A DNA stretch of 27,110 bases. It comes from Patescibacteria group bacterium (lineage in GTDB: Bacteria > Patescibacteriota > Microgenomatia > UBA1400 > MFAQ01). A model generated the notes under the pieces. That model was not told where the DNA came from. It worked only from the letters and a program-made list of their open reading frames with translations, and did no database searches. The stretch covers positions 1 to 27,110 of the forward strand of contig DASVZW010000069.1 of assembly GCA_036391475.1 (NCBI GenBank), written 5' to 3'. Position numbers and translations under genes: made by a program. Below, one piece after another: positions 1 through 26,621 of the stretch (within the stretch, counting starts at the first letter, position 1; each line of letters starts with the position of its first letter).

Positions 1-975
1 GGTGACTGGAATGTGGATAGAAGCAGAAAAGTGTTTGAAGTGGCTAAGAAATTGTCCGGCAGGCCGGACGTAATAGTGATGGAAGCAACTAATACCGGTT
101 CTGAAAAAGCTTATTTGGGTAAGAATGAAAGTGATGTGAGAGACACTTTTATGGAATTGGTAAAAGAGTCGGATAATGAACTGATCGTATCGGTAGCGCC
201 AATAAACAATTTGACCAGATTGAGAAGCATTATGGAGGTGGCTGAGGCAACCGGAAGAAAATTAGCTTTGTCTTTCCCCCATTCAGAACTAGCGCTACAA
301 CTGGCCGCAGCTAAAAAATTGGCACCAACAGGCGCGGAGGGATTTGAAGATGTACTGCCGTATGACATTGGGAATGACCGGCTAACTGTTTGGGCAAAAC
401 AAATGACTTCGCCAAGAACTTTCCATAAAGCCTTGATAGAAATTGCCAATAGAGGAAACTTGGGCGCCTTAACACACGAAAGATTGTCGAGAGAAAACGG
501 TAAATGGATCGTGGTGGTTTCGCCATTTGACGTTTTGGAAGATCAGTTCGATGGTTTGAGAATCAACACCGGAATGAAAGTGGTTTGGATGGCGAGTTTC
601 CCCTTTGATCAGGACCAAAGATATTTTATTGGTGCCAATAATGAATGGATGAGGAGGTCGAAGAGAGTTAAGTTTGTGGCCGATATGGAGGTTGAGGGAC
701 AAGGTGGAAGAATAAAGTCAATGTTGCACGGAACAGGAGTTCTTCATGTTTCCGGCCACGCAACAGCCGAAGAAATGGTAGCGATAACTGACATTTTGGT
801 AGGGAGGGACCGTAAGAATATTCCAGTAATCATTAATCACACCGAAAATCCCGAAGAAGCCGGCAGGCTACTATCCAGCAGACTGGGTGATAGAGTAAAA
901 GTGATCTCCAGATTGGATAGATATGATCCGACGGATCCAATAGCGCATCCCGGTTTTTATTTTCCATTGATTTAA
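1..975 (+). CDS. RNase J-like metallo-beta-lactamase/beta-CASP protein, C-terminal part (5' truncated by window edge)
   Basis: Frame is open from position 1 (GDWNVDRS...). Motifs PDVIVMEATN, LHVSGHA and a later NHTE match the beta-CASP/RMMBL motif order of RNase J/CPSF-type nucleases. Confidence 0.75.
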   Translation, partial: GDWNVDRSRKVFEVAKKLSGRPDVIVMEATNTGSEKAYLGKNESDVRDTFMELVKESDNELIVSVAPINNLTRLRSIMEVAEATGRKLALSFPHSELALQLAAAKKLAPTGAEGFEDVLPYDIGNDRLTVWAKQMTSPRTFHKALIEIANRGNLGALTHERLSRENGKWIVVVSPFDVLEDQFDGLRINTGMKVVWMASFPFDQDQRYFIGANNEWMRRSKRVKFVADMEVEGQGGRIKSMLHGTGVLHVSGHATAEEMVAITDILVGRDRKNIPVIINHTENPEEAGRLLSSRLGDRVKVISRLDRYDPTDPIAHPGFYFPLI

Positions 976-3991: not shown

Positions 3992-5674
3992 ATGGTCGAC
4001 AATACTGCCCTATATAGCGCTTTAGCAGAGTTACAGGTAGTTGACAGAAAATTACTTGATGAAGTTTGGGAGGAAGCCCGAGAATCAGGTGATCCTCTGT
4101 CGGAGTTGTTGCTGGAAAGAGATCTAATATCCGATGAGAACTTGGGATTATTGGTGGCGGATATGCTTAAGGTACCCTTTATCAGGCTCGAAAAAAATGT
4201 ATTAAATAGGGAAATTTTACAAATAATCCCGGAGGAGATGGCCAGGGCAAGAAGGTGCTTGGTTTTTAAAGTCGACAATGAGGGAACCCATATAGCCATG
4301 GAGGACCCAACCGATCTGGCGACGATCTCGTTGTTAAAAAATAAGATCTCCGGACCGATAAAAATATATTACGCTACCGAGAGAGATATAAAATTTGCCT
4401 TGTTCGCCTATCGACGAGAAGCATCCGAAGTATTTGAGGAAATGATCAATAGGCATGTTGGTGAGGCAAAAAGCCAACCGGAACCAGAGGCCCCGATCAT
4501 AAGAATCGTGGGGATGATGATCATCTATGCTTATCAAAGCAGGGCATCAGATATACACATCGAACCATATGAGGACTACATCCAGGTCCGTTTCAGAATA
4601 GATGGAGTGTTACAGGATGTAATAAGACTGCCTTTGGATCTTCTAAATCAGATTGTCAGCAGAATAAAAATAATGTCGAGCTTGCCCACAGATGAACATT
4701 CGATGGCACTTGACGGAAAATTTGTTTTTACGGTGCCCGATGTAGAAGATGTTGATGTCCGGGTATCGATAATCCCTTCCACTACCGGAGAAAGAATTGT
4801 AATGAGACTATTAGCAGGGAACATGCGGCAATACGCATTGTTGGATTTAGGTTTTTCCGATGAAGATATAAAGAAAGTGCGGGAAGCATACAGTAAACCT
4901 TACGGGATGTTGTTGTCGACCGGACCAACAGGTTCGGGAAAGACAACCACGATGTATGCTTTCATAAAAATTCTCAACCGGAGGAATGTAAATATCATGA
5001 CGATCGAGGATCCGGTCGAATATCAAATGAGAGGAGTGAACCAAATTCAGGTCAATGCCAAAACAAATTTAACTTTTGCGGCCGGACTGAAGTCAATTGT
5101 CCGACAAGATCCAAACATTATTTTGGTAGGTGAAATTAGAGATGAAGAAACTGCAAATATTGCGGTCAATGCGGCCTTGACAGGCCATTTGGTATTGTCG
5201 ACACTCCACACAAATGATGCTGCTACCACTATTCCGAGATTGTTGGAAATGAAGGTAGAACCATTTTTGGTGGCTTCCTCGGTGAATATGATCGTGGCTC
5301 AAAGATTGGTGAGGAAAATTTGTACGAGCTGTAGGGTAAGCAAGGTGATTAATCTGGAAGAACTAATAAAAGAGCTACCCGAAAAGGAAGTAATTCAGCA
5401 TTTGGAAAAAGAAGCGGAGGGAATGAGAGTTTACTATGGTAAAGGTTGTGGGGTTTGCAGACATACAGGTTACGTTGGCAGAATAGGAATTTTTGAAGTT
5501 ATGCCGGTTACCGAAGATATCAGAAAAGCGATCGTTGATAAAAGTGACGCCGAAGTTATAAAGAAAATAGCCATATCCGAAGGGATGCAAACGATGTTGG
5601 AAAATGGTTTGGATAAGGTAAAACTGGGGTTAACAACGGTTGAAGAGTTATTAAGGGTCATTAAAGGCTCATGA
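3992..5674 (+). CDS. pilB: Type IV pilus assembly ATPase PilB (GspE/PulE family) with degenerate MshEN N-terminus
   Basis: ASDIHIEP, Walker A GPTGSGKTTT, TIEDPVEY, Walker B ILVGEIRD, His box STLHTN, tetracysteine CTSC...CGVC. Confidence 0.93.
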   Translation: MVDNTALYSALAELQVVDRKLLDEVWEEARESGDPLSELLLERDLISDENLGLLVADMLKVPFIRLEKNVLNREILQIIPEEMARARRCLVFKVDNEGTHIAMEDPTDLATISLLKNKISGPIKIYYATERDIKFALFAYRREASEVFEEMINRHVGEAKSQPEPEAPIIRIVGMMIIYAYQSRASDIHIEPYEDYIQVRFRIDGVLQDVIRLPLDLLNQIVSRIKIMSSLPTDEHSMALDGKFVFTVPDVEDVDVRVSIIPSTTGERIVMRLLAGNMRQYALLDLGFSDEDIKKVREAYSKPYGMLLSTGPTGSGKTTTMYAFIKILNRRNVNIMTIEDPVEYQMRGVNQIQVNAKTNLTFAAGLKSIVRQDPNIILVGEIRDEETANIAVNAALTGHLVLSTLHTNDAATTIPRLLEMKVEPFLVASSVNMIVAQRLVRKICTSCRVSKVINLEELIKELPEKEVIQHLEKEAEGMRVYYGKGCGVCRHTGYVGRIGIFEVMPVTEDIRKAIVDKSDAEVIKKIAISEGMQTMLENGLDKVKLGLTTVEELLRVIKGS

Positions 5675-13720: not shown

Positions 13721-14101
13721 CTAGTGGGTGATGGAAAGGATCAAAAATACGGGGAGTAAGTGGATAATCACCGACAGGGTAAGTCTTGCAAGATAGCTTT
13801 TAATGTTTAGATCCAGAGACAAGAGTTGGCTATCCTTTTTGGAATAATAAATCGCCAGGCCCACATTGATCAGAAAAACCAGAGTGACAAGGCCAATGAT
13901 TGTCGGTTGGGGTGCGATCAACATAAGAAAAAGCATTCCAAGATAGTAAACGGTAATGGCTGCTATGGCGACGAATTGAAGACCTTGCAGCCAAAGAGGG
14001 AGGTTGCCTTGATGAGTTTTAGCTAATAGATGGACAAGGGTACTCAAAAAGAAAAAAGACAAACAGGCGTAAATACATACGAGTGCAATTTGGTCGATCA
14101 T
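13721..14101 (-). CDS. Orphan 4-TM membrane protein
   Basis: Four hydrophobic segments; SD AAGGAG-CCCCC-ATG. Confidence 0.72.
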   Translation of the reverse strand: MIDQIALVCIYACLSFFFLSTLVHLLAKTHQGNLPLWLQGLQFVAIAAITVYYLGMLFLMLIAPQPTIIGLVTLVFLINVGLAIYYSKKDSQLLSLDLNIKSYLARLTLSVIIHLLPVFLILSITH

Positions 14102-14154
14102 GGGGGCTCCTTTGTGGTGGAGAATGTGAAGGTTGGACTTTTTAAGTCTCGGGT

Positions 14155-15429: not shown

Positions 15430-15867
15430 TCAACCGAGGACAACAATACCTTTAAAAACGTCGGCAAGGAGCAGGATGAGGTGCCAAAGGGCCCAACCGG
15501 CGGCCAGAAGAATGACCCCGCATACAGTAACAAGGACAAGAATACCCCAGAAGTTGCCTAGCCCAAATTCGTCATTACTTTTGTCGGGGCCTGAATAGAC
15601 CGTATAAACAACGGCAATGGTGATTAGGAGCCAAACAAGCGCCCAGAGTGAGTTAAAAAGCGCCGGCCAGAGGCCTGGTCCGGATGCTGCCAGGAGCAGA
15701 TCGAGGATAACGGTAAGCTCAGCGAGAAATTGTAAGGCCATCCCGGTTCTGCCTAGGTAGCTGTTTTGACCACCCAAATAGACACGCATAAGAGTGCCGA
15801 TGACCATAAGCCAAAGAGGGGAAGTCATAACGGCGCCAACAAAAAGGGGACTTTGATAGAAAGGCAT
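15430..15867 (-). CDS. Orphan 4-TM membrane protein (unit U2)
   Basis: Four hydrophobic segments; SD GGAGG-AAAA-ATG. Confidence 0.72.
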   Translation of the reverse strand: MPFYQSPLFVGAVMTSPLWLMVIGTLMRVYLGGQNSYLGRTGMALQFLAELTVILDLLLAASGPGLWPALFNSLWALVWLLITIAVVYTVYSGPDKSNDEFGLGNFWGILVLVTVCGVILLAAGWALWHLILLLADVFKGIVVLG

Positions 15868-15877
15868 TTTTCCTCCA

Positions 15878-15909
15878 GTTAAGGTACTTGAGATATAGGA
15901 ATTATACCA
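15878..15909 (-). promoter_or_regulatory. Extended -10 promoter plus leader motif GTACCTTAAC of unit U2
   Basis: Minus strand TG-G-TATAAT(15909-15901); GTACCTTAAC at 15887-15878. Confidence 0.65.
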
Positions 15910-15995
15910 TAGAGCATTTTATATAAGATATACGGCTAAGAAAACTGGGGATTGTATTTTGAGCTTATTGAAGTATAAAATTAAAAACTGTACTT

Positions 15996-16799
15996 ATGAT
16001 TAGACGCAATGATGATGACCTGAAAATTTTACTAGAAGCTGAGGCAGACGTAGATAAAGTAAAGAGATGGATAGTAGAGATATATTACGGAAGAGATCCT
16101 TTAAACTTTCACCTGACCGGAGATGTTTTTGATTGGTGGGTCGAGGAAGTACTTCAAAATTATCAGAAAGCAAAGAACCAAAAAATCAGGAAATTAATCC
16201 TGCACAAAGTTTTGCATACAAAGGAAGTGGTGGAAGCCGGACTTGATATTGTAGTTAGAACGGGAGAGATAGACTGGGACCCTTTTGTGGTGTGTACGGT
16301 TTGCTTGTTGCACGATATTGGTAGATTCCCACAGGCATTGCTAGGTAGTTATTCCGATAAAGAGACTAATTTTGACCATGCCAAAGAAGGAGCAAAAATG
16401 ATCGATAATAAAAATTTGCCTGAAATGGAAATGATGGGTATCGATAAAAATCTAGTGGTAGAGGCGGTGGAGGCTCATAGTGCAATTAGCTACACAGGAA
16501 ATAATATTTATCCAAAACTGACCAGAGATTCAGACAAACTCGCACTATTACGTTACATGCCATATCTAATGGACGATGAACGGTTCCCGAAGATAAAGGT
16601 TAACGAAAAGGCACTAGCCGCATATAAGGAGGGAAGAATGGTCGAACACAAGGATATGTTAAGCAGAGCAGATGTATGTTTGGCATGGCTTTGTTGGCAA
16701 AATGATTTTAACTTTGAGGCAACAAGAATGGCGTTTTTGGAGGAAGGAATAAAGGACTGGGTAAAGTCGGAGCTTTATAAAGAAGGTGTGGAGATATAA
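15996..16799 (+). CDS. HD-domain phosphohydrolase
   Basis: KVLHT (H), CLLHDIGRF (HD), FDHAKEG, AHS, RDSDKL (D). Confidence 0.85.
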   Translation: MIRRNDDDLKILLEAEADVDKVKRWIVEIYYGRDPLNFHLTGDVFDWWVEEVLQNYQKAKNQKIRKLILHKVLHTKEVVEAGLDIVVRTGEIDWDPFVVCTVCLLHDIGRFPQALLGSYSDKETNFDHAKEGAKMIDNKNLPEMEMMGIDKNLVVEAVEAHSAISYTGNNIYPKLTRDSDKLALLRYMPYLMDDERFPKIKVNEKALAAYKEGRMVEHKDMLSRADVCLAWLCWQNDFNFEATRMAFLEEGIKDWVKSELYKEGVEI

Positions 16800-17401
16800 A
16801 TTTTTAGGGCATCACCAAGTTTTGATGAAGGACCATGTCCGGGGTAAATGGTGGTTTCCGGAGGAAGCTTGCCGATAATTTTAAGAGAGTGGAGCAGCTC
16901 TATTTTGCTTGAATAAGAGTGACTGGTGTCGGTTAGCTCTTCGGCAAATAGGGTGTCTCCAGTTAATAGTATTTCATCTGATCTTAGACAAATCGACCCT
17001 GGAGTGTGACCGGGTGTATGAATAGTATTAATGATCGAATTGCCCAATTTAAATGAATGCCGATCCTCCAAATTGTGGTCGATGGGAGGGTTGGGCAAGT
17101 GTTGACCGGGAACAAAGTGGTCAGCACTTTGTTTGGAATTTTTATAAAGAAAAAGATCTTTTTGATTTAAATAAATGGGAAGATGAAAATTTAATTTTAG
17201 TTCAAGCACACCAAGACAATGATCGAAGTGCCCGTGGGTTAGAGCGATTGCCTGGGGTTTAAGGTGATGTTCAATAATCGTTTGGGAGATGAAGTCGGAC
17301 TCGTCTCCGGGATCGACGATCAGGGTTTCGTTACTTACCTCGTCAATTAGTAGATAACAATTGGTAAGCTGAGAGCCAACAGGTAAGGTAATAATTTCCA
17401 T
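16775..17401 (-). CDS. Metallo-beta-lactamase-fold hydrolase (glyoxalase II/YcbL-like)
   Basis: TNCYL, VDPG, THGHFDH, HTPGHT, GDTLF, YPGHG; TG-A-TAAAAT lies 9 nt upstream of the ATG. Confidence 0.9.
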   Translation of the reverse strand: MEIITLPVGSQLTNCYLLIDEVSNETLIVDPGDESDFISQTIIEHHLKPQAIALTHGHFDHCLGVLELKLNFHLPIYLNQKDLFLYKNSKQSADHFVPGQHLPNPPIDHNLEDRHSFKLGNSIINTIHTPGHTPGSICLRSDEILLTGDTLFAEELTDTSHSYSSKIELLHSLKIIGKLPPETTIYPGHGPSSKLGDALKIYISTPSL

Positions 17402-17438
17402 GGATAAGAAATTTTATCAAAATAAATTTGTAAGATTA

Positions 17439-17467
17439 TTGACAATCTAGGCACGGATAACTATTAT
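17439..17467 (+). promoter_or_regulatory. sigma70-type promoter
   Basis: TTGACA(17439-17444), 17 nt, TATTAT(17462-17467). Confidence 0.68.
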
Positions 17468-17491
17468 GGAATTATTACCATTACTTGAGAT

Positions 17492-17941
17492 ATGAAAACA
17501 AAATGGCTTATGGTGATTGGCGGTGTGGTGTTGGGTGGTTGTGTGATGACTAAGAATTTAAATCAAACGATGGTTACTTTGACACCCAGCCCGACAGTAT
17601 CAGTTTCACCTATGCCTACAAAAACAGTGGAGTTATTGGAACAGTCGAAATCGGGAATGAACGGAAAGGTGGCTTTTGTAGATGAAGGTGACAAAACTAG
17701 AGTAACTATAACTTTGTCAGGGAAAGGAATTATCGGGCCATTGCCAGCACATGTTCATTCGGGAAGTTGTCCGAACGTAGGGGTGATCAAGTTCCCTCTG
17801 AACGACGTAAAAAATGGCAGTTCCGACACTATGATCAATATCAGAATGTCCGACCTTTTTGGCTCGAACCCGATGGCGGTGAATGTACACAAGTCAGTAC
17901 AAGAAGCGACAATCTATACGGCTTGTGGTGACTTAAAATAA
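17492..17941 (+). CDS. Putative lipoprotein with Cu/Zn-SOD-like/CHRD-like small domain
   Basis: Lipobox VLGG|C, Pro/Thr linker, PAHVHSGSC...AVNVHKS...TACGDL. Confidence 0.62.
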   Translation: MKTKWLMVIGGVVLGGCVMTKNLNQTMVTLTPSPTVSVSPMPTKTVELLEQSKSGMNGKVAFVDEGDKTRVTITLSGKGIIGPLPAHVHSGSCPNVGVIKFPLNDVKNGSSDTMINIRMSDLFGSNPMAVNVHKSVQEATIYTACGDLK

Positions 17942-17942
17942 C

Positions 17943-17967
17943 AAAAACCCACCAATAGTTGGTGGGT
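17943..17967 (-). terminator. Intrinsic terminator of unit U3
   Basis: ACCCACCAA/TTGGTGGGT stem (17947-17967) with T-tract on the minus strand. Confidence 0.78.
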
Positions 17968-17983
17968 ATGAAATCGGCCTTTT

Positions 17984-18418
17984 TTAGAAATTAAGACCGG
18001 TTTTTCCTGACTGCCAGCGAAGGAACTTGCGGGCGATTCCTTTTCCTTCTTTGTCCAGGGTGGAGTAGCGAGAGGTAAGGGTAGTGACCAGCCAATCACG
18101 GAGGCTGATCGGGTGGGCTTTGGGGTGATCACGGGTGATCTGTGAGTCGTAATCCCAAAGCATGGGGCTAGGTTCTCCGGAATCCAGGAGATAGTTACAC
18201 TTCTCGAGGATGGCTTGGTGCATGCCGGAGGCGTCGGTTTGTTCATAATGCCGGGCGAGCATGACCAGTTTGGCCAGCTTAATAGGATCGGGCGAGGCAT
18301 AGAGGACGCCGCCGAAATTGGTATAGATCCGGGTGACGTAGAGCCCGTAAAAGCCCAGCAGGCCGGCTTTCTCTGCATTGACCAGGAAGAGGTCAATTTT
18401 GCGCATATCCATGATCAT
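17984..18418 (-). CDS. Orphan soluble helical protein (unit U3)
   Basis: 144 aa; SD AAGGAGG-AGTT-ATG; has its own promoter and terminator. Confidence 0.7.
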   Translation of the reverse strand: MIMDMRKIDLFLVNAEKAGLLGFYGLYVTRIYTNFGGVLYASPDPIKLAKLVMLARHYEQTDASGMHQAILEKCNYLLDSGEPSPMLWDYDSQITRDHPKAHPISLRDWLVTTLTSRYSTLDKEGKGIARKFLRWQSGKTGLNF

Positions 18419-18467
18419 AAACTCCTCCTTGGAGACAGGAATTAAATAGGAAAGTGCTTGATGGGGT

Positions 18468-18496
18468 AATATATCACCTTAGGCACAGTTTGTCAA
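18468..18496 (-). promoter_or_regulatory. sigma70-type promoter of unit U3
   Basis: TTGACA(18496-18491), 17 nt, TATATT(18473-18468), then ACCCC. Confidence 0.75.
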
Positions 18497-18508
18497 ATTA
18501 TAGGCTAT

Positions 18509-18531
18509 AAAAAACCCGCCGGATGGCGGGT
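18509..18531 (-). terminator. Intrinsic terminator of unit U4
   Basis: ACCCGCC/GGCGGGT stem (18514-18531) with T-tract on the minus strand. Confidence 0.8.
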
Positions 18532-18538
18532 GGTAAGT

Positions 18539-18820
18539 TTAACTGATGGTAACTCGAAGGTTGTCAAGAAAGTCACCGGAGGCTTCAAGAAGAAGCCGAA
18601 TTGCTTCACCTAAATCGGTGTCGGAGACTTTGGCGTTGGGGTCTTTGGGTGTTAACAAAAGAGTAACCCTGAAAATGGTCTCCTGACCGTGTGGTTCGGG
18701 ATAGAAATCCTGGTCAAGAAAGACGGTGGGCTCGGATTTCCGTTCGGCTAATTTATTGGCGATTTCGGTCTCCCGTTCTTTGCCCCAAACCTTAGCGGTG
18801 ATCTGGACATTTTCCATCAT
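18539..18820 (-). CDS. Small orphan protein (unit U4)
   Basis: 93 aa; SD TAGGAGG-AGATC-ATG. Confidence 0.68.
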   Translation of the reverse strand: MMENVQITAKVWGKERETEIANKLAERKSEPTVFLDQDFYPEPHGQETIFRVTLLLTPKDPNAKVSDTDLGEAIRLLLEASGDFLDNLRVTIS

Positions 18821-18829
18821 GATCTCCTC

Positions 18830-19141
18830 CTATTGGCCAACGACACTGGCCACCATTTGAACATGATCGAGCCGAATTTCCTGGTCCCTTAAAAAGGTGC
18901 CGTCGGACACCCATTTTATGAGTTCACAGATCTTGTCGGAAGGAATGGTGTTTTCTTTACCTTTCCGGGAGATGGTGAAATAGACCTGGAACAGATCCCG
19001 CCGGATAGAACTAGCCGACAAGGTGCCTTCGACGATGTTGTAACCCTGAGACCAAGTGTTCAGGAAATCTCTAAAGTCCTCAAGATCATTGAGCTTCAAG
19101 AAAACGAAATAGAAGCTGATAGAGAAGTTCTTCATGGGCAT
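18830..19141 (-). CDS. Small orphan protein (unit U4)
   Basis: 103 aa; SD AAGGAGG-TTTTCG-ATG. Confidence 0.68.
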   Translation of the reverse strand: MPMKNFSISFYFVFLKLNDLEDFRDFLNTWSQGYNIVEGTLSASSIRRDLFQVYFTISRKGKENTIPSDKICELIKWVSDGTFLRDQEIRLDHVQMVASVVGQ

Positions 19142-19177
19142 CGAAAACCTCCTTAAAGTGCAAGAGTAGAATGAGGT

Positions 19178-19206
19178 ATCTTAGTTTGAATGAGGCTAAA
19201 AGTCAA
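19178..19206 (-). promoter_or_regulatory. sigma70-type promoter of unit U4
   Basis: TTGACT(19206-19201), 17 nt, TAAGAT(19183-19178), then ACCTC. Confidence 0.72.
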
Positions 19207-19253
19207 GTTATAGGACACTATAACGGGAGCTTGGGATTATGTTAAATTTAATT

Positions 19254-20162
19254 ATGACTAAAATTTTGGAATGGGCAAAAAGAAATTGGCTGACTTTGGT
19301 TCTTTTATTGGTAGTCGTGTATCTGTTTTCAAAAAATAATCAAGTTCCGTTTTATGGAGGGATGACAAATTTAAGTTTTGACTCCGGGGTAAGTAGCGGT
19401 AGTTTAGGTGTGGCGCCGATGATGGTTAAAAGTATAGGAACCCAGATATATCAACCTGCCGCACCGGTAGCAAGTACACAAAGAATGACCGTCCAAGATA
19501 CCTCTCTGGCTATGCAGGTAAACGATGTTTCTTCGGTTTTGGCTAGTATCGAAAATTTGGCAGTGAGTGCAGGCGGATACATGGTGGATAGAAACATGAA
19601 TAAACCCGAAGGGGCAGCTACCGGAAACATAACCATTAGAGTACCGGTTGAGAAAAGAGAAACAACTTTGACGGCGATAAAAGCATTGGGGATCAAAACG
19701 GTTTCCGAAAACGTGACCGGTTATGATGTTACGGACCAATATGTAGATCTTCAAGGAAGAATTGATAATTTAAATAAAACAAAAGCCAAGATGCAGACAT
19801 TGATGGATCAAGCAACAAAGGTAGCCGACTTGGCCGATATCCAGATGCAGATTAACAATATTCAAGAACAAATCGATAGTTATACTGGTCAACAAAAATA
19901 TTTGGAACAAACGGCTAAACTGACAAGAATAACGGTGAGTTTATCAACTGATGAATTGGCTTTGCCCTATGCCCCGGATACTGCTTGGAGACCCGGAGTT
20001 GTCTTCAAAACAGCGGTGAGGTCAATGATCGGTGCGTTAAGATCAGTAGCTAATTCGATAATCTGGGTTGTCGTTTATATACCCGTAATCGCATTTTTGT
20101 TAATTATTTTCTGGCTAGTAAAGTTGGTTTGGAGGAAAGTTCAGATGAGGAAATTGGGTTAA
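19254..20162 (+). CDS. DUF4349 domain membrane protein (ORF open from 19239; ATG 19254 preferred)
   Basis: N-terminal TM, then GGY....., ITIRVP, SENVTGYDVTDQYVDL, coiled coil IQEQIDS..GQQKYL, C-terminal TM; TG-T-TAAATT lies 5 nt before ATG 19254. Confidence 0.85.
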   Translation: MTKILEWAKRNWLTLVLLLVVVYLFSKNNQVPFYGGMTNLSFDSGVSSGSLGVAPMMVKSIGTQIYQPAAPVASTQRMTVQDTSLAMQVNDVSSVLASIENLAVSAGGYMVDRNMNKPEGAATGNITIRVPVEKRETTLTAIKALGIKTVSENVTGYDVTDQYVDLQGRIDNLNKTKAKMQTLMDQATKVADLADIQMQINNIQEQIDSYTGQQKYLEQTAKLTRITVSLSTDELALPYAPDTAWRPGVVFKTAVRSMIGALRSVANSIIWVVVYIPVIAFLLIIFWLVKLVWRKVQMRKLG

Positions 20163-20189
20163 ATTAACGAGAAAAAGGATTAAGGAAAT

Positions 20190-20218
20190 AAAAAAACTCT
20201 CCCTTTTGGGGAGAGTTT
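20190..20218. terminator. Intrinsic terminator of unit U5 (possibly bidirectional)
   Basis: A7 then AAACTCTCCC/GGGAGAGTTT stem (20194-20218) between convergent genes. Confidence 0.8.
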
Positions 20219-20230
20219 GAGTATTGGGTT

Positions 20231-20680
20231 TTACGGTAAAACAGCCATTAGTTTTCGCCAGACGGCGTCGCAGAATTGGAGACAAAAGGAGTATAAGGTG
20301 AGTGAGGTGATGACGCCCAGCCAGGAGGCCAATAGAAAATGAAGGCTGGACTTATCGATGACCAAGGTGATCAGCAGGGCAATGCCGAAGAGCAGCAAAC
20401 CGGTGGTGAGGGCGGTAAAGCCCTGGACGAACAGGTTGCCGAAACAGCCGAGGTCCGGGTCGATGAGGTGGTTGAAATGAGGGGGAATGCCGACCATTAG
20501 GCTTACGAGTAGCCAGATATTGAGAAAATTCAGGTTCCAGTCGGAAATCTGTGCCGGAAAGATGAGATGCAGGATGCCGTAGATGCAAAGCGTAAGTAAG
20601 GCACCGGCGGCCAAGGATACGATGGCCCATTTGGAGATCTTACCTAAGGCCGAAAGTAAGGTTGGAGATTCAGCTTCCAT
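20231..20680 (-). CDS. Orphan 4-TM membrane protein (unit U5)
   Basis: Four hydrophobic segments; SD AAGGAG-CAAATA-ATG. Confidence 0.72.
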   Translation of the reverse strand: MEAESPTLLSALGKISKWAIVSLAAGALLTLCIYGILHLIFPAQISDWNLNFLNIWLLVSLMVGIPPHFNHLIDPDLGCFGNLFVQGFTALTTGLLLFGIALLITLVIDKSSLHFLLASWLGVITSLTLYSFCLQFCDAVWRKLMAVLP

Positions 20681-20706
20681 TATTTGCTCCTTCGAAAACA
20701 GATGGA

Positions 20707-20751
20707 TTTAAGGTACAAAGGGATTCTAGCACCAGTAAGCCTAAAAATCAA
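20707..20751 (-). promoter_or_regulatory. sigma70-type promoter plus leader motif GTACCTTAAA of unit U5
   Basis: TTGATT(20751-20746), 17 nt, TAGAAT(20728-20723), then CCCTTT and GTACCTTAAA(20716-20707). Confidence 0.72.
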
Positions 20752-20770
20752 GGTTATGGGATGAAATATC

Positions 20771-21520
20771 TTATTCGATAAGTGTACCCTGATCGCTATA
20801 AGTGCCTATTTCGTGATTACCAAATTCATCAACCAGCCCAACGGTATAACAATTTTTACCTTTTTCTTTGGACCGATAAGCGAGTTCGTCGGCAATTTTA
20901 TATATTTCGTCGGGTGAAACTTCGTTGAACGGCATTACTACGGCACAGCCAAGGCTAATTGTTTGTGGTTCCGGTGTAAGTGATTTTATATTAGCCGGAA
21001 TACGATTTACCCTGTGAGCACTATTTAGGTATCTTTTAAGGAAGGAGGCAACCTCTTGGTCGAGGTGATCCAAATCTTTTATGGTAAGAAGCACCATAAA
21101 CTCGTCTCCGGCTAAACGACCAAAGGTATCTGTACCTCGAACACTAGAGCCAACCTCAATAGCCAGCTCCTTGAGAACAGTATCACCTTGAGGATGACCA
21201 AATGATTCGTTTACTTGTCTAAAGTTATCGACATCTACCATGACTACGGCAAAAGGATTGCCACCACGAGCGACTTCCTGAAGTTTCCTTTCCATTTCTG
21301 CTTGGATGAAACGTCGATTGGGAAGTTCGGTTAAGGTGTCGGTCATTGATAAGGATTCAAGTAACTTACTCTTGGCTCTCTCTTCATCAAGCAATCTTTG
21401 TGTTTCAGCAAGCTGTTTCTCAAGCTGGGCAATTCTTTGTTCCGGTGAGGGAACTTCGCCTTGAGGCTCGACGGTAAGTTTGATATCCGGATTGTTTTCT
21501 ATTTGAAGCGAGTCGATCAT
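20771..21520 (-). CDS. Diguanylate cyclase (coiled coil + GGDEF)
   Basis: TDTLTELPNRR, VDVDNFRQVNESFGH..GD, I-site RGTD five residues before A-site AGDEF, ADELAYRSKEKGKN; TATCAT lies 6 nt before the ATG. Confidence 0.92.
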   Translation of the reverse strand: MIDSLQIENNPDIKLTVEPQGEVPSPEQRIAQLEKQLAETQRLLDEERAKSKLLESLSMTDTLTELPNRRFIQAEMERKLQEVARGGNPFAVVMVDVDNFRQVNESFGHPQGDTVLKELAIEVGSSVRGTDTFGRLAGDEFMVLLTIKDLDHLDQEVASFLKRYLNSAHRVNRIPANIKSLTPEPQTISLGCAVVMPFNEVSPDEIYKIADELAYRSKEKGKNCYTVGLVDEFGNHEIGTYSDQGTLIE

Positions 21521-21606
21521 GATTTGATGATACAGTATGATCTTTAGCAGTGATACAATCTCGATGTTAATTGTACTTTTTTATCTTTGAAAATCCCGGA
21601 GGCGGT

Positions 21607-21936
21607 ATGCTTATCACCTTTTTGAATGTACCTTTTGATGTCTGTTGGAATGAGGAAATCGTAGAAAAGTTATTGGGGGAAACTGAATTATTCATGGGTC
21701 ATGAGCCGCGCATTGAAACTTATCGACTTAAAGAGAACCAATCCCATGTTCATGTCATAGTTTCGGAGATCATTGAGGCTTGCCCTTGGGAATTGCGGGT
21801 AGCTATCGCAAAGCAGATATTTTTGTTTTTAAAATACCATGCACTGCTTGAAGGCTCCGACATTTACTTTGCCAACTTCCCCACAGAACCCTTTGATGAG
21901 CATTATTTTGAACCTTTGGATGTAGAGATAAGGTAG
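21607..21936 (+). CDS. Small orphan protein (unit U6; start reassigned from TTG 21571 to ATG 21607)
   Basis: SD GGAGG(21598-21602)-CGGT-ATG; extended -10 TG-A-TACAAT at 21551-21559; has its own terminator. Confidence 0.68.
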   Translation: MLITFLNVPFDVCWNEEIVEKLLGETELFMGHEPRIETYRLKENQSHVHVIVSEIIEACPWELRVAIAKQIFLFLKYHALLEGSDIYFANFPTEPFDEHYFEPLDVEIR

Positions 21937-21947
21937 TACATTTTTAT

Positions 21948-21973
21948 AGACCCCTGAACCGGGGTCTTTTTTT
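21948..21973 (+). terminator. Intrinsic terminator of unit U6
   Basis: AGACCCC/GGGGTCT stem followed by T-tract. Confidence 0.8.
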
Positions 21974-21989
21974 ATATACAATAAGGGAT

Positions 21990-22625
21990 ATGAAATATAA
22001 GTATTTTTTATTTGATTGGGATGGAAGTTTGGGAGCAACTTTGCCGTTATGGTTTAAGGCCTTTAAAGAAACATTTTCCGATTATGGAATTAAGACCGAT
22101 TACAAAGAAATTGGAGAGGTAGTCTTAGGTGATTGGGAGGGACCTAAAAAATTGGGGATAACTAATCTTGAAGAATTTTTTGGGAAAATGGAAGCCGAAT
22201 TGATGCCTAAATTGCCAGACGTCCAGTTGAATCCCGGAGTTAAAGAAACTTTAGAAAAAATAAAGTCCTTGGGAGGAAAGATCGGGGTGGTAACAACCTC
22301 AAAAAAACGTTACATTAAGAATGCTTTAAAAAATAATGGATTGTCAAAAGTGGTGGATGTTTTTTTGGGCAGGGAGGATGTTGAAAATTACAAACCGGAC
22401 CCGGAGATACTTTATAAAGCTCTAAACTTCATGGGTGGACGGCCATCGGAGTCGATCATGGTGGGCGATACGGTAAAAGACATTGAGGCCGCTAAAAGAG
22501 CGGGGATTGATAGTGCACTGTATTTCCCGGACGAATACCGAGAATATTATGATGAAGTCAGACAGAAAGGTCTTGGGGCTACTTACGTGATCAAAAGTTT
22601 TCAGGATCTAGAAAGGTTTCTTTAA
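21990..22625 (+). CDS. HAD-family hydrolase, subfamily IA (PpaX/Gph-like)
   Basis: Motif I FDWDGSL, motif II VVTTS, motif III KPDP, motif IV MVGDTVKD; TACAAT(21977-21982) lies 7 nt before the ATG. Confidence 0.9.
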   Translation: MKYKYFLFDWDGSLGATLPLWFKAFKETFSDYGIKTDYKEIGEVVLGDWEGPKKLGITNLEEFFGKMEAELMPKLPDVQLNPGVKETLEKIKSLGGKIGVVTTSKKRYIKNALKNNGLSKVVDVFLGREDVENYKPDPEILYKALNFMGGRPSESIMVGDTVKDIEAAKRAGIDSALYFPDEYREYYDEVRQKGLGATYVIKSFQDLERFL

Positions 22626-22636
22626 ATTTGAGTAAT

Positions 22637-22662
22637 AAAAACCCCGCCGAGTGTGGCGGGGT
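22637..22662 (-). terminator. Intrinsic terminator of unit U7
   Basis: ACCCCGCC/GGCGGGGT stem (22641-22662) with T-tract on the minus strand. Confidence 0.8.
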
Positions 22663-22669
22663 GAAAAAA

Positions 22670-23020
22670 TTAGGGGATGAAATGACGAACATAGGCGTAA
22701 AGCCGGGAGAGTGGGGCTATGGTGAGAATAACGGTGATGGTCTGAACCAGATTTAAAGAATCACCGGAGAGCCCAAAAAAGGCATTGGTCCTCAGTAAAG
22801 CCACCAGCGCACCAAAAATGATTAAGAGAGCTAGTGGAATGATCCAATCAGCTTTGGTGCCATTATTAGGGATGAGGAAATAGGTTAAATTGGACAACCC
22901 GATACCGGCGAAAAGGGCGCCGAGAACAGCTACGATGTTCCATTCCGGCGATCGAGCCAGAAGGAGATTCGCCAGAAAACCAAAAATCACGAACAAAACA
23001 TTAACGAATTTGTTGTTCAT
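22670..23020 (-). CDS. Orphan 4-TM membrane protein (unit U7)
   Basis: Four hydrophobic segments; SD AAGGAG-ACAC-ATG. Confidence 0.72.
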   Translation of the reverse strand: MNNKFVNVLFVIFGFLANLLLARSPEWNIVAVLGALFAGIGLSNLTYFLIPNNGTKADWIIPLALLIIFGALVALLRTNAFFGLSGDSLNLVQTITVILTIAPLSRLYAYVRHFIP

Positions 23021-23031
23021 GTGTCTCCTTG

Positions 23032-23553
23032 TTATTTCCAGTTTATAAAATAGGTGATGATCTTGAATCTCTTTGAAGAGCGGGCAAGTACCTCAATATG
23101 TCTTTTGGCCGTGATAACTTCCAGAAGATCAGCGTTTTTATAACTGACTGTCATAACGCCATCCAGAAAGGTTACCTTGTAAATTGTTTCATCCAAAAGT
23201 CCCAGGAAAAGGTCGATTTCCGGATCACGCCCAATTAAACGGACGCCACTATCGATAATGTAGACTACCTCGAAAAGCGGTTCTTCCGGGGGGTAAATGC
23301 TGTTCGTAAACTCTGAAATAACTTCTCCTGAGGTTTGCAAACACATTGAAAGGTCGAAAACAGCATCTTGGCTAAGCGGAACCGAACAATTGCAGAAAAA
23401 CAAATAGCGCTTGAGAGAGCTGCCAACCAAACGCCAACCGTGAGTGGTGATTCCATCTTGCCGACTGCAAAGATCATGAAAGCGTTCGGTGAGGCCGGCC
23501 GGTAGGTTTTGAAGTTCGACGAGTGAGATAAAAAACCAAGTGGGTTTATCCAT
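23032..23553 (-). CDS. Orphan protein, possibly two ACT-like modules (unit U7)
   Basis: 173 aa; SD GAGGAG overlapping the upstream stop. Confidence 0.65.
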   Translation of the reverse strand: MDKPTWFFISLVELQNLPAGLTERFHDLCSRQDGITTHGWRLVGSSLKRYLFFCNCSVPLSQDAVFDLSMCLQTSGEVISEFTNSIYPPEEPLFEVVYIIDSGVRLIGRDPEIDLFLGLLDETIYKVTFLDGVMTVSYKNADLLEVITAKRHIEVLARSSKRFKIITYFINWK

Positions 23554-23555
23554 GA

Positions 23556-23840
23556 CTACTCCTCTTTGGGATGTGTTTCGGTTTCTGAAGAGAAATTTAA
23601 GAAACTCGCAGTTTGAAGCCAGGTCCGGATCTGATTGCGGATCTCTTCGGATATGGGTGAGTTGGCTTCGACAATGAAAGCGTGTTCGAACCCTTCCTGC
23701 AGGTACAAAGCAGATGTGACCTCAGGCTGCAGTAGTGATAAACGATGAAAAGCGGAGACCAAATGTCTTAATGGATCACTTCTTTGGGCGGAAAAGCGGA
23801 AGGTAACTGCAAAAGGTGCATTGATGGCCGGTAAGTTCAT
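23556..23840 (-). CDS. Small orphan protein, possibly ACT-like (unit U7)
   Basis: 94 aa; SD TAGGAGG-ATCCT-ATG. Confidence 0.68.
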   Translation of the reverse strand: MNLPAINAPFAVTFRFSAQRSDPLRHLVSAFHRLSLLQPEVTSALYLQEGFEHAFIVEANSPISEEIRNQIRTWLQTASFLNFSSETETHPKEE

Positions 23841-23876
23841 AGGATCCTCCTAATTTGAAATGTGCGATTTGTGGGT

Positions 23877-23906
23877 ATTTTATCACTTATAGGACTAAAT
23901 GGTCAT
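23877..23906 (-). promoter_or_regulatory. Extended -10 promoter of unit U7
   Basis: ATGACC(23906-23901), 18 nt ending in TG-A, TAAAAT(23882-23877), then ACCC. Confidence 0.62.
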
Positions 23907-23907
23907 A

Positions 23908-23936
23908 TTGAGGAGAAATGATTAAGACGCTATACT
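23908..23936 (+). promoter_or_regulatory. sigma70-type promoter, likely leaderless
   Basis: TTGAGG(23908-23913), 17 nt, TATACT(23931-23936), then 5 nt to ATG 23942. Confidence 0.65.
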
Positions 23937-23941
23937 GAATT

Positions 23942-25669
23942 ATGGCTTCTGAAGCAGAAAACGTTGAGCGTGGAAAAATAACTCAAGAAGATAGAGAAAG
24001 AATAAGGCCGACAACGACGTGGGAAGAATATAGCGCGGCACAAAAGGAAAAAAATAAGAAAGCTGAGATGTTTGTGACTTATGTACTGCAAAATACGGAT
24101 TTTGCCAATGAAAAATTGGCTCCACTGAAAGAAAAGACTCCGGGGGAAATATTGGATATGGAAGATAAGGGCGGAGAAGTTTTTTTAAGAGCAGCACAGT
24201 TGGCAATAAAGGAATTGGTGACTCACGGGGTGTTGGTCAAAAATGAAGAAGGTGAATATTTGTTAAAACCATTCTCAGATCTTGATGGCAAATGTTGTTT
24301 GGGTTTAATGGAAATGGCCGGCTTAACCAGTGGAGCAAAAATTACTTATGTGGAACCGGGAAAAGAAGTGAAGGGGGCAGTAATGATGGATACCGGAGGC
24401 AGAAATGTAGAGTATGAAGAGGGTTCAATGTATATAGACCATCACGCCGATGATTCCAAAAGCGGAACCAGTGCCACAGAAGAGACTTACGATATTTTAT
24501 TTAGGTGCGGGCTAATTCAACCGACAATGGCTTTGGAAGGAATGGCCGACTTTGTGACGGGAATGGATAATGGTTCGTATCCCGGAATGCATAAAAAAGA
24601 AAATTTTTTGAATTCCTGGAAAACAATGATTGGTATGTCAAGGTTTTTAGGTTTCCAGGAGATGAAGGAGTATTTTTCAGATTTACGCAATGACCCATTA
24701 AGACCGCTTGGTTTTAACAGGATGGATAAATGGCCGATCGGGACAAATAAAAAACTGAACGATAGGTCTAATGAAATGAAGATCGACATCAATAGATCGG
24801 TGGATGCGGTTGAACGATTAAGAGACGAGCATATGTATGTCGAGACAAAGAAATACGGAAAAGTGTTAGTAGATATCGGTAAACAAGTGCCGTTGGGTAG
24901 GGATGCTGCATTTGCTTTGGGGTTCGATACTTATTTGGGATGGAACCCAGATAATAATGGGTTCGTTATAAATTCAACCAGGAAAATAACCGATGAATTG
25001 GCACAAGGTTTTGGAGTAAGAGAGTACATGTGGTTGAAGCCAAGAAATGTGGGTGGAGATTTGACGCTGAGACTAGATGAAGTGTTGGACACCTTAGCGG
25101 GTGGAACGGCCTGGACAGAAGGGAAATTGGCGGAGTATCTAAATAAGGGAATTAAATCAGATAAAGAAGCGGAAGAAGAAGGTTTGGCCGGTTTTTTCGA
25201 TCCCGATAGAGAAGAAAAAGAAGTAACCGAAGAACTGGCCGGAATATTTGATCCTGACCTTCAAGAAGAAAATGAGGAGGTAATTCCCGAGGAGATCGAA
25301 GAACAGCCTTTGGTAGAAATATTAGCCGAACAGGCGACCCCGGAGGTAGTCAGTGTTCCTGAAATAGAAACGGTAGAGGCAATTGAGCCTGAACCAAGCC
25401 TGGAAAGAGAGGAGGAATTGGACGAAGGAATTACAGCCGAATCCGAGACGAGACTGATCAACGAAGCTGAGAAGCTAAACCTGGAAAAACTGGAACAGGA
25501 AGCAATAAGAAGAAAACAGTGGGATCTGGTCCAGCAGTTAAGAAGCGAGTATGCCGCCAAAGAAGAGGAAAGGAACAATCGTTTTAGCTTGGTAAATCTT
25601 TTTAACGGAAAGTTGTGGAAAAGAGCGGTAAATAGCACTAAATCTTGGTGGAGAAGGGTGTTCGGATAA
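23942..25669 (+). CDS. DHH-like phosphoesterase domain with long acidic tail and basic amphipathic C-terminus
   Basis: Motifs in DHH order: SDLDG, MMDTGG, YIDHH, TSA, GMDN. Glu-rich tail; ends LWKRAVNSTKSWWRRVFG. Confidence 0.55.
   Translation: MASEAENVERGKITQEDRERIRPTTTWEEYSAAQKEKNKKAEMFVTYVLQNTDFANEKLAPLKEKTPGEILDMEDKGGEVFLRAAQLAIKELVTHGVLVKNEEGEYLLKPFSDLDGKCCLGLMEMAGLTSGAKITYVEPGKEVKGAVMMDTGGRNVEYEEGSMYIDHHADDSKSGTSATEETYDILFRCGLIQPTMALEGMADFVTGMDNGSYPGMHKKENFLNSWKTMIGMSRFLGFQEMKEYFSDLRNDPLRPLGFNRMDKWPIGTNKKLNDRSNEMKIDINRSVDAVERLRDEHMYVETKKYGKVLVDIGKQVPLGRDAAFALGFDTYLGWNPDNNGFVINSTRKITDELAQGFGVREYMWLKPRNVGGDLTLRLDEVLDTLAGGTAWTEGKLAEYLNKGIKSDKEAEEEGLAGFFDPDREEKEVTEELAGIFDPDLQEENEEVIPEEIEEQPLVEILAEQATPEVVSVPEIETVEAIEPEPSLEREEELDEGITAESETRLINEAEKLNLEKLEQEAIRRKQWDLVQQLRSEYAAKEEERNNRFSLVNLFNGKLWKRAVNSTKSWWRRVFG
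25184..25285 (+). repeat. Two imperfect 51-bp (17-aa) coding repeats, LAG(F/I)FDPDxxExxE
   Basis: TTGGCCGGT... at 25184 and CTGGCCGGA... at 25235. Confidence 0.65.
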
Positions 25670-25681
25670 TAGCTTATAGTA

Positions 25682-25739
25682 TTGATTTTAGGCATCTATT
25701 GTGATAAAATCCTCTTAATCTTACGTCTTGTACCTTAAC
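25682..25739 (+). promoter_or_regulatory. sigma70-type promoter plus leader motif GTACCTTAAC of unit U8
   Basis: TTGATT(25682-25687), 17 nt ending in TG-A, TAAAAT(25705-25710), then CCTC; GTACCTTAAC at 25730-25739. Confidence 0.75.
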
Positions 25740-25754
25740 TGAATGGAGGAAAAT

Positions 25755-26621
25755 ATGCGTAAAGTTTTGGCTTGGACTTTGTCTTTGGCTTTTTTGGTTG
25801 GTCTGATCGGTACACCCGCTTCGTTAGTTTTAGCAAGCGGTGGATTTACTCAAGTGGCGGGATCGGCTTTTGTCTATAACAGCATCCCGGCACCGGTAGG
25901 TCAAACTGTGAATTTTTATTGTGCAGGCACCTTTGCCGGTCAATCGACCGTAACCACGGTAGGGGTTTTAAATACTACCGACATTGGCTCGGCTAATGGA
26001 ACTCTTTGTCATGAAGGTGATGAAGTCACGGCGATGGTGGGACCTTTCAGAGCCCTGGTCACACCCCGTCTTTTTTGGGCGAACGACAGTGTAGTCCACC
26101 AGATCACCGCCCGGGCGATCGACACCGAATACACCATCGATATCCAGTCGGCTTCAACCCAGCTGGTGAACCTTCCATTGGCTTTTGAGTTGCCAATCGG
26201 CTTGAGATACGAGGACTATAACACCGGAAAAACGGACACAGTGTATTTTATGAGTTCCGGGTCAGGTATGTCTTTTGATGCAAAGTCCTTTGAGTTTTTA
26301 TCGGCCAACGGCATGCCTTTTTCAAAGGTTTACTATGATCGTTATGTATGCAGCGGGATTGGTCTTAAATACGATAAGTCCGGTCAGACATCACTGGTTT
26401 CGGTAACAAATAATTCCGGCCAGGTGATGCAAGTGATGTTGACTTTGGACGGAACGACCAATCCGGCCGGTTTGTTGAATCCCGGCGGAAGCTTCTCGGT
26501 AGAATCCGATGTTCCCGGTGCCGTAGCTCTTTTGAAAGACGGCGTTTCGGGGAGCCAGTGTGTCAGCGTTGGCTGGAACTTAAGAATCCAGAAAATTTTT
26601 CTTCCTTTTGTCAAAAAATGA
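25755..26621 (+). CDS. Secreted beta-rich orphan protein ending in IFLPFVKK (unit U8; start reassigned from 25743 to ATG 25755)
   Basis: SD GGAGG(25745-25749)-AAAAT-ATG; signal peptide MRKVLAW...ASLVLA; four Cys. Confidence 0.72.
   Translation: MRKVLAWTLSLAFLVGLIGTPASLVLASGGFTQVAGSAFVYNSIPAPVGQTVNFYCAGTFAGQSTVTTVGVLNTTDIGSANGTLCHEGDEVTAMVGPFRALVTPRLFWANDSVVHQITARAIDTEYTIDIQSASTQLVNLPLAFELPIGLRYEDYNTGKTDTVYFMSSGSGMSFDAKSFEFLSANGMPFSKVYYDRYVCSGIGLKYDKSGQTSLVSVTNNSGQVMQVMLTLDGTTNPAGLLNPGGSFSVESDVPGAVALLKDGVSGSQCVSVGWNLRIQKIFLPFVKK

Follow-up and report, generated by a model that had tools for sequence, protein, structure and literature searches.

A boxA-like motif in the leaders of Shine–Dalgarno-led accessory genes of a Candidatus Collierbacteria genome

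Eight motif-led transcription units

The DNA analyzed here (hereinafter the window) is an entire 27.1-kb contig from the genome bin of an uncultured soil bacterium of Candidatus Collierbacteria, a lineage of the Microgenomates group in the Patescibacteria or Candidate Phyla Radiation (CPR). The bin (G000), in which the window is contig C69, amounts to 905 kb in 158 contigs with 42% G+C and is 89% complete; near-identical DNA is also contained in soil, rhizosphere, sediment and mine-tailings metagenomes, and no RNA dataset is listed as containing the window or U8 (see below). The window holds eight transcription units of short orphan genes (U1–U8), all of which carry a copy, degenerate in U1, of a short sense-strand motif with the core GYACHTT between the promoter and the coding region. 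Genome-wide, about half of the recognizable promoter-led leaders with a Shine–Dalgarno (SD) sequence carry this motif, which, judging from its likeness to sites in the rRNA operons of the same organism, is probably a lineage-specific variant of the boxA element.

In all eight units, a sigma-70-type promoter, often having a TGn extension, a C-rich discriminator and 17 nt between its boxes, is followed in turn by the motif, a strong SD and one to three short open reading frames (ORFs), and the unit closes with a G+C-rich hairpin and a T-run. The best copy in the window (13.0 bits under the genome-wide matrix discussed below) is GCACATT of U7 on the minus strand (23859–23865; with its tail GCACATTTCAAA, 23865–23854), which lies between a −10 box TAAAAT (23882–23877) and an SD GGAGG (23850–23846) preceding the ATG at 23840 of the first of three ORFs (23556–23840, 23032–23553 and 22670–23020). 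The core GTACCTT is found in U5 (20710–20716, minus; 11.5 bits), together with a −35 box TTGATT (20751–20746), a −10 box TAGAAT (20728–20723, 6 nt before the G), an SD GGAG (20690–20687) and an ATG at 20680, and likewise in U8 on the plus strand (25730–25736; 10.6 bits), with a −35 box TTGATT (25682–25687), an extended −10 box TGaTAAAAT ending at 25710 and an SD GGAGG (25745–25749) ahead of a gene for a signal-peptide protein, likely starting at ATG 25755 and ending at 26621. It recurs in U2 (15881–15887, minus; 9.2 bits; with its tail GTACCTTAAC to 15878), flanked by a −10 box TATAAT (15906–15901) and an SD GGAGG (15876–15872) with an ATG at 15867. GCACTTT is the core in U3 (18451–18457, minus; 10.2 bits), where it follows a −35 box TTGACA (18496–18491) and an extended −10 box TGaTATATT ending at 18468 and precedes an SD GGAGG (18428–18424) and an ATG at 18418. 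The same core in the bicistronic U4 (19155–19161, minus; 9.4 bits) is continuous with the SD AAGGAGG (GGAGG at 19152–19148); here the −35 box TTGACT (19206–19201) and −10 box TAAGAT (19183–19178) lie upstream, and the two ORFs span 18830–19141 (ATG at 19141) and 18539–18820. In U6, on the plus strand, GTACTTT (21573–21579; 8.6 bits) has a T-rich rather than A-rich tail, which lowers its score, and stands between a −10 box TACAAT (21554–21559) and an SD GGAGG (21598–21602) with an ATG at 21607. Finally, the core of U1 is CAACCTT (14129–14135, minus; 9.8 bits), flanked by a −35 box TTGACA (14183–14178), a −10 box TAAGAT (14160–14155) and an ATG at 14101. Written as RNA, the element reads GUACCUUAAC in U2 and U8 and GCACAUUUCAAA in U7, the rrn form of the organism being GCUCUUUAAAAA.

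A preliminary description of this DNA had drawn the core as GYAC(C/T)TTAA and listed copies whose coordinates and sense orientation all hold; a second string in U6, ATCTTTGAAAA, is in its place but not supported as a copy. The motif it drew is real, but the conserved part is shorter, namely GYACHTT with an A-rich tail rather than an ending in TTAA; owing to this shorter core, the copies of U3 and U7, which it had ranked as weaker, are full members of the set. U1, said to lack a clear copy, does have the degenerate one given above, which is off at the G and Y positions and remains the weakest of the window. The 9/12 match of the U4 copy to the Escherichia coli rrn boxA is correct. The string GYACYTTAA occurs five times in the window (1.0 expected; none of 100 shuffles reaches 5), four of these being copies from the preliminary description and the fifth (4167–4175, minus) being antisense, within a coding region, and probably due to chance.

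In motif-led units, (A)CC usually follows the −10 box, and the promoters of U4, U5 and U8 have an extended −35 region, TTGAYTTTTAGSC, in common (19201–19213, 20739–20751 and 25682–25693, respectively). Pairing between leader and trailer gave no consistent signal across the eight units (z from −3.3 to +1.4); U6 alone stands out, with a predicted duplex of −23.4 kcal/mol between its leader (21565–21606) and the region after its stop codon (21937–22006; z = −3.3 against shuffled trailers). Among 25 further family members, three of them congeneric, none matched U3–U6 (18400–21650) at the DNA level; only the conserved gene embedded among these units (19239–20162) was matched in this search. By this comparison, the orphan units U3–U6 appear to be strain- or species-specific.

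A strand-specific element of SD-led leaders

When the stretches from −80 to −5 upstream of 422 SD-led ORFs were scanned de novo for k-mers, with no prior motif, the scan recovered GTACTTT 17 times in sense and never in antisense orientation (2.4 expected) and GCACATT 11 times in sense and again never in antisense (0.7 expected). Expectation-maximization under a zero-or-one-occurrence-per-sequence model gives the profile G(.76)-Y-A(.73)/T(.25)-C(.92)-H-T(.90)-T(.95)-N-A-A-A, with a pyrimidine fraction of.75 at the H position and about 31% of the leaders occupied. Where a strict −35/−10 promoter is present, 32 of 61 leaders have the motif downstream of the −10 box and ahead of the start codon, as compared to a mean of 0.9 and a maximum of 7 for column-shuffled matrices and 0 of 61 for the reverse-complement matrix; this test is circular in that the matrix is scored on its own training sequences, a weakness from which the k-mer, regular-expression and other-genome counts are free. 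The expression −10/4–22 nt/GYACHTT/4–32 nt/GGAG has 27 matches versus 0–3 for scrambled or reversed cores. Matrix matches of at least 11 bits number 48 in sense-upstream and 7 in antisense-upstream DNA, with 49 in 583 kb of coding DNA, and promoter-less co-directional spacers contain the motif in 3 of 29 cases (0.4 expected). Thus, the enrichment in SD-led leaders that the preliminary description had made a touchstone of its proposal is strong and strand-specific with respect to shuffled controls, the antisense strand and coding DNA. We regard the motif as almost certainly a functional, strand-specific leader element.

The G of the motif is 6–19 nt past the −10 box in most copies and never less than 6 nt, which, given the predicted transcription start sites, would place the motif in the transcribed part of the unit. 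The core ends 13–29 nt before the ATG in most copies, and the motif stands 0–20 nt upstream of the SD. Hence, in these SD-led, mostly accessory and self-terminated units, the motif is predicted to occupy the first few to about 20 nt of the transcript. By prediction, the motif is marginally less paired than the remainder of the leader (0.59 vs. 0.51 unpaired, p = 0.05), a weak difference for an AU-rich site. A further string, TTGACTTT, is enriched in leaders genome-wide (11 sense, 1 antisense).

The motif is almost exclusive to SD-led units, which coexist in this genome with a large leaderless class. The consensus TANAAT peaks 6–9 nt upstream of the ATGs of long ORFs (59, 32, 27 and 21 cases, respectively, vs. 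about 6 per offset elsewhere), and 106 genes with a −10 box at offsets 6–8 from the ATG belong to the leaderless class, examples in the window being the genes at 1046 (+), 17401 (−), 21990 (+), 23942 (+) and 26698 (+). Among randomly chosen leaderless genes, 17 of 20 have Pfam matches and are of the housekeeping kind (SecY, MetRS, L21, Pth, TsaD, QueA and DNA ligase), as compared to about 15 of 40 motif-led genes (Fisher's exact test, p = 8e-4), most of which are short orphans. The median lengths are 239 and 150 aa, respectively. The recognizable products of motif-led genes include that of rpsJ, nicotinate phosphoribosyltransferase (NAPRTase), a CCA-adding enzyme, an epimerase, a DEAD-box/S1 helicase and a YkuD transpeptidase. 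In all, there are roughly 70–100 small, mostly lineage-specific genes with the motif at their start.

The motif in rRNA operons, at rpsJ and across the order

Both the 16S and the 23S gene occur twice in the bin. The 16S gene on contig C65 (91–93% identity to same-family genomes) and the 23S gene on C157 (91%) are genuine, as settled by this closeness to family relatives. The other two, the 16S gene on C72 (579–2080) and the 23S gene on C29 (1839–4812), share only 77% and 72% identity with their genuine counterparts, respectively, and these contigs are contamination from a different CPR organism. Accordingly, GTACTTTAAAA in the leader of the C72 16S gene and CTACTTTAACAA before the C29 23S gene were rejected as direct proof; what they show is that other CPR bacteria have rrn boxA sites of the A-variant. 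The genuine rRNA genes are unlinked: downstream of the C65 16S gene come an intrinsic terminator and a motif-led protein-coding unit, in that order, and the C157 23S gene has its own promoter with tRNA-Ala upstream. The 23S match extends over 3214 nt versus a 2925-position model, which suggests an insertion.

When the matrix trained only on mRNA leaders is applied to the genuine rRNA leaders, the boxA of 16S P2, GAGCTCTTTAAAAA, scores 11.2 bits and that of the 23S spacer, TTGCTCCTTGAAAA, 11.8 bits, with only about 0.04 such matches expected in those 800 nt (p about 8e-4). The 16S site lies 6 nt past the P2 −10 box, a layout as in the mRNA leaders, and the 23S site comes after a hairpin and directly before the 23S gene, following tRNA-Ala. 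Likeness to the rrn boxA of the same genome and the presence of nusB, the other grounds on which the preliminary description had staked its case, are thus both observed, and nusA, nusG, rpsJ and rho are encoded as well.

Comparison of orthologous rRNA leaders shows the A-form and the canonical T-form replacing each other. The 16S P2 site upstream of a conserved GTGAAG reads GCTCTTTAAAAA in G000, GCTCGTTAACAA in three relatives (G004, G008 and G013) and GCACTTTGATAA in G007, and the same site in a genome of another family of the order (G024) reads GCACTTTAATAA. In the leader of the tRNA-Ala/23S operon, a hairpin is followed by GCACTTTAT in G000, with GCACATTTTTAACAA at the equivalent place in G004. 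Relatives therefore alternate between GCTC and GCAC at the orthologous rrn boxA position: the rrn site has A at BoxA position 4 in both G007 and G024, as does the tRNA-Ala/23S leader in G000 as well as G004, and the mRNA copies have A in 73% and U in 25% of cases at this position. In the numbering of PMC3177189, the invariant positions of the motif are BoxA G2, C5 and U8, and its variable H is position 6. That paper on the NusB–NusE–BoxA structure reports that transversions at G2 and C5 are not tolerated, that U8 sits in a base-specific pocket at the NusB–NusE interface, and that C and U are interchangeable at position 6; the other near-invariant T of the motif aligns with U7, which is not known to be singled out in this way. 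Leaders with canonical GYTCHTT are mildly enriched in the family (about 6 vs. 1.5 in controls) and nowhere else in the order.

With the window units U3–U6 unmatched, conservation of the element was followed at rpsJ and NAPRTase instead. In about 27 Collierbacteria, the spacer between tuf and rpsJ has an invariant GCAC[T/A/C]TT, which two records show as GTACATT, some 15 nt ahead of the ATG; its remainder has diverged and holds no SD; the Y and H degeneracy at this site mirrors the positions that vary in the genome-wide motif. In G000, rpsJ has no SD and the sole conserved feature of the 43-nt spacer is TAGCACTTT (contig C142, 3196–3239). Elsewhere the canonical form fills this place, as with GCTCTTTAA in another family and, by genome, GCTCTTTAAGG in G024, GCTCGTTAAC in G025 and GCACGTTGAAAG in G021. 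The product of rpsJ, S10, is NusE, and a copy of the motif ahead of the NusE gene suggests autoregulation. A putative boxA upstream of rpsJ was reported before from three genera (PMC5725501).

Leaders of NAPRTase orthologues and paralogues in the family tell a similar story: GYAC followed by a pyrimidine and an A-rich stretch is kept between the −10 box and the SD, with the distance to the −10 box drifting from 11 to 23 nt. In paralogue leaders of four genomes (G008, G013, G018 and G011), a short hairpin, e.g., CGGCCTAGGCCG or CGGCTAAGGCCG, lies between the motif and the SD; this hairpin appears to be kept across genomes and recalls the boxA–boxB arrangement.

To gauge the wider distribution, the −10/GYACHTT/SD pattern was counted in 121 genomes of the order with a reversed-core control. 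G000 has 29 matches (reversed 0), and 12 other genomes from the genera g1, g2, g6 and g9 have 7–24 (reversed 0–2), as compared to 1–2 (reversed 0) in the genera g5 and g7 of the same family. Outside the family, G036 of family f19 has 25 (reversed 0) and G064 has 8 (reversed 2), with the remaining genomes of the other 18 families at background for both cores. The expansion of the motif on mRNAs is thus confined to one clade of the family and one genome elsewhere in the order. The genera with the expansion are those with the rpsJ element, a co-occurrence that counts as a single event because they form one clade. Rho is present in 110 of the 121 genomes whatever their motif count and, being near-universal, does not discriminate between them. 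The Rho RNA-binding domain scores about 55–65 bits (75 in one case) in families f1, f18 and f19, versus about 75–95 bits in other families, suggesting a diverged Rho in lineages that include motif-rich genomes.

Readings of the element and comparison with known systems

In light of the rRNA and rpsJ sites, we posit that the motif is a lineage-specific boxA variant, a site for NusB–NusE(S10) that would unite the motif-led genes in a large Nus-factor regulon; we hold this reading to be fairly probable. Several observations weigh against it. Position 3 of the core is A in 73% of the mRNA copies and T in two of the three rRNA elements of the organism itself, and we know of no characterized boxA in which this position is other than T. 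Most copies lie directly downstream of a promoter, which would also fit an element that depends on sigma or acts at the DNA level. The 89%-complete bin yielded no SuhB. A co-occurrence of the rpsJ element and the mRNA expansion was not found in family f19, where G036 is motif-rich without the element and G062 shows the reverse, so that the two are uncoupled there. Finally, G007 has a GCAC rrn boxA and yet almost no mRNA copies.

The most serious alternative is that a real RNA element is read by something else, because most mRNA copies have A where characterized boxA elements have U. The reader might be a dedicated leader-binding protein or the translation machinery, with the likeness to boxA being a partial convergence on a U-rich single-stranded site; in one version, the motif would be an enhancer or standby site needed by SD-led mRNAs in an organism whose housekeeping mRNAs are leaderless. 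The position of the motif 0–20 nt upstream of the SD, its near-exclusive association with SD-led units in a genome with 106 leaderless genes, and the clade-specific expansion of a site whose presumed readers, NusB and S10, are universal would all suit such a reader. However, complementarity to 16S rRNA is no better than that of permuted motifs: the best 16S window, GGAAGGUGC in the loop of helix 45, pairs at a mean of 7.09 of 9 positions, and 64% of the permuted motifs do as well or better. Moreover, the element also precedes rpsJ, which has no SD, is found in leaders of rRNA and tRNA operons, and interchanges with the canonical GCTC boxA at orthologous sites. We accordingly consider a different RNA reader unlikely, though it deserves the first place among the alternatives.

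Less probable still is a DNA-level element in which YACHTT, as a −10-like TAnnnT on the non-template strand of the initially transcribed region, would be recognized by sigma still attached to the polymerase and cause a promoter-proximal pause. Sigma-dependent pause elements are known from lambda PR' and lac, most copies fall within their known range (6–19 nt after the −10 box), and the A and last T of the motif align with the key −10 positions A−11 and T−7. The best-conserved position, C (.92), and the preceding G (.76) are nevertheless foreign to a −10 element, and a quarter of the copies have T in place of the key A. Further, copies occur without a nearby promoter in the tuf–rpsJ spacer, the 23S spacer after tRNA-Ala and three promoter-less spacers, and the distance to the −10 box drifts from 11 to 23 nt among orthologues. 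An operator for a clade-specific DNA-binding regulator of accessory-gene promoters would account for a promoter-adjacent site in one clade and one gene class, but we give it very little credence: the motif has no symmetry and always points in the direction of transcription (the reverse complement gives 0 of 61), it stands at varying distances from the −10 box, and it is present in rRNA leaders and in the intra-operon spacer before rpsJ. Lastly, a functionless remnant of one copied promoter–leader cassette, as might be imagined from the shared −35 extension of U4, U5 and U8 and from the fast-evolving orphan genes devoid of DNA-level matches even within the genus, is the least credible of all and largely refuted by the conservation pattern, since similarity among the leaders does not extend beyond the functional boxes, the motif is kept amid diverged flanks in rpsJ spacers and NAPRTase leaders, and it precedes unrelated conserved genes and recurs in 13 other genomes of the family.

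Returning to the boxA-variant reading, NusB–S10 would bind G-Y-A-C-H-U-U as the leader emerges from RNA polymerase and, with NusA and NusG, nucleate a Nus complex tethered to the polymerase; this complex might then set the coupling between transcription of the unit and the loading of ribosomes at the SD 0–20 nt downstream. As to the direction of the effect, the boxA of suhB is 6 nt from its SD, and there the whole complex, probably via an RNA loop, blocks 30S access, which makes repression likelier than antitermination. To our knowledge, every characterized mRNA boxA (suhB and a ParE-like toxin gene) is repressive; because of this, and because the units are short, monocistronic or nearly so, with intrinsic terminators and rpsJ is a target, we lean, provided that the boxA-variant reading holds, towards a Nus-dependent mechanism that tunes or represses translation initiation and in which Rho would terminate transcripts left uncoupled. 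The opposite direction, namely protection of poorly translated accessory transcripts from Rho, would claim the smaller though still substantial share of that reading. In either direction, some 70–100 accessory genes would depend on how much free NusB and S10 is available and hence on ribosome synthesis. Extending this further, one might tentatively picture the clade as running two expression regimes, one of leaderless housekeeping genes and the other of about 70–100 SD-led accessory orphans with a boxA-variant 5′ end, under NusB–S10 as a global regulator; we put this forward as a possibility rather than as an expectation.

Nus factors are usually seen as dedicated to rRNA, lambdoid phages and a handful of autoregulated genes. 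If a boxA variant does mark about half of the leadered transcription units in a reduced genome, mRNA expression in at least part of the CPR would be under the general control of the Nus complex, and accessory genes would have a simple link to ribosome production in organisms where classical regulators are very few. The two-regime picture would also make this the largest Nus-factor regulon known, with boxA acting as a general "class mark" of mRNAs rather than as an rRNA-specific signal. Although the organism is uncultured, the tolerance of NusB–S10 for A at BoxA position 4 can be tested with recombinant proteins. For annotators, the motif is a practical mark of the true starts of short orphan genes.

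The lambda nut site (boxA and boxB), whose boxA loads Nus factors onto the polymerase, is comparable in having boxA at the start of a transcription unit, and some NAPRTase leaders have a hairpin after the motif. Unlike in lambda, however, there is no N-like protein or conserved boxB here, and the units are short, with intrinsic terminators that a lambda-type complex would read through. The rrn boxA, the NusB–NusE(S10) binding site of the rRNA antitermination complex, is closer: both have the core G-Y-N-C-Y-U-U-A-A with invariant G, C and UU, both are on the sense strand, the mRNA copies being early in the predicted transcript and presumably single-stranded, and in the rRNA operons of this organism a boxB-like hairpin sometimes stands before the element. 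In contrast to the rrn boxA, the mRNA copies mostly have A instead of U at the third core position and mark about 70–100 short protein-coding units with intrinsic terminators rather than long untranslated rRNA, and SuhB was not found in the bin.

The nearest parallel is boxA on mRNAs, described for suhB of E. coli and Salmonella and the ParE-like toxin gene of C. koseri, with putative sites at rpsJ and ribH–nusB (Baniulyte et al. 2017, PMC5725501). As in those cases, the sites described here are within about 50 nt of the start codon and close to the SD (6 nt in suhB, 0–20 nt here), and a Nus-factor gene is among the targets, the copy preceding rpsJ being conserved. They differ in their consensus, GYAC as against GYTC, and in their targets, which are mainly orphan accessory genes and not translation-related ones. 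Full-text literature searches returned nothing on boxA in Patescibacteria and no published description of such a motif. Above all, they differ in number. The published survey, which counted 0–7 sites in each gamma-proteobacterial genome, anticipated "only a few regulatory targets" for a species (PMC5725501), in keeping with the remark in the preliminary description that boxA-like sites on many short mRNAs would be unusual. With the motif on about half of the recognizable promoter-led SD leaders, the copy number in this genome is far above that reported for any studied bacterium.

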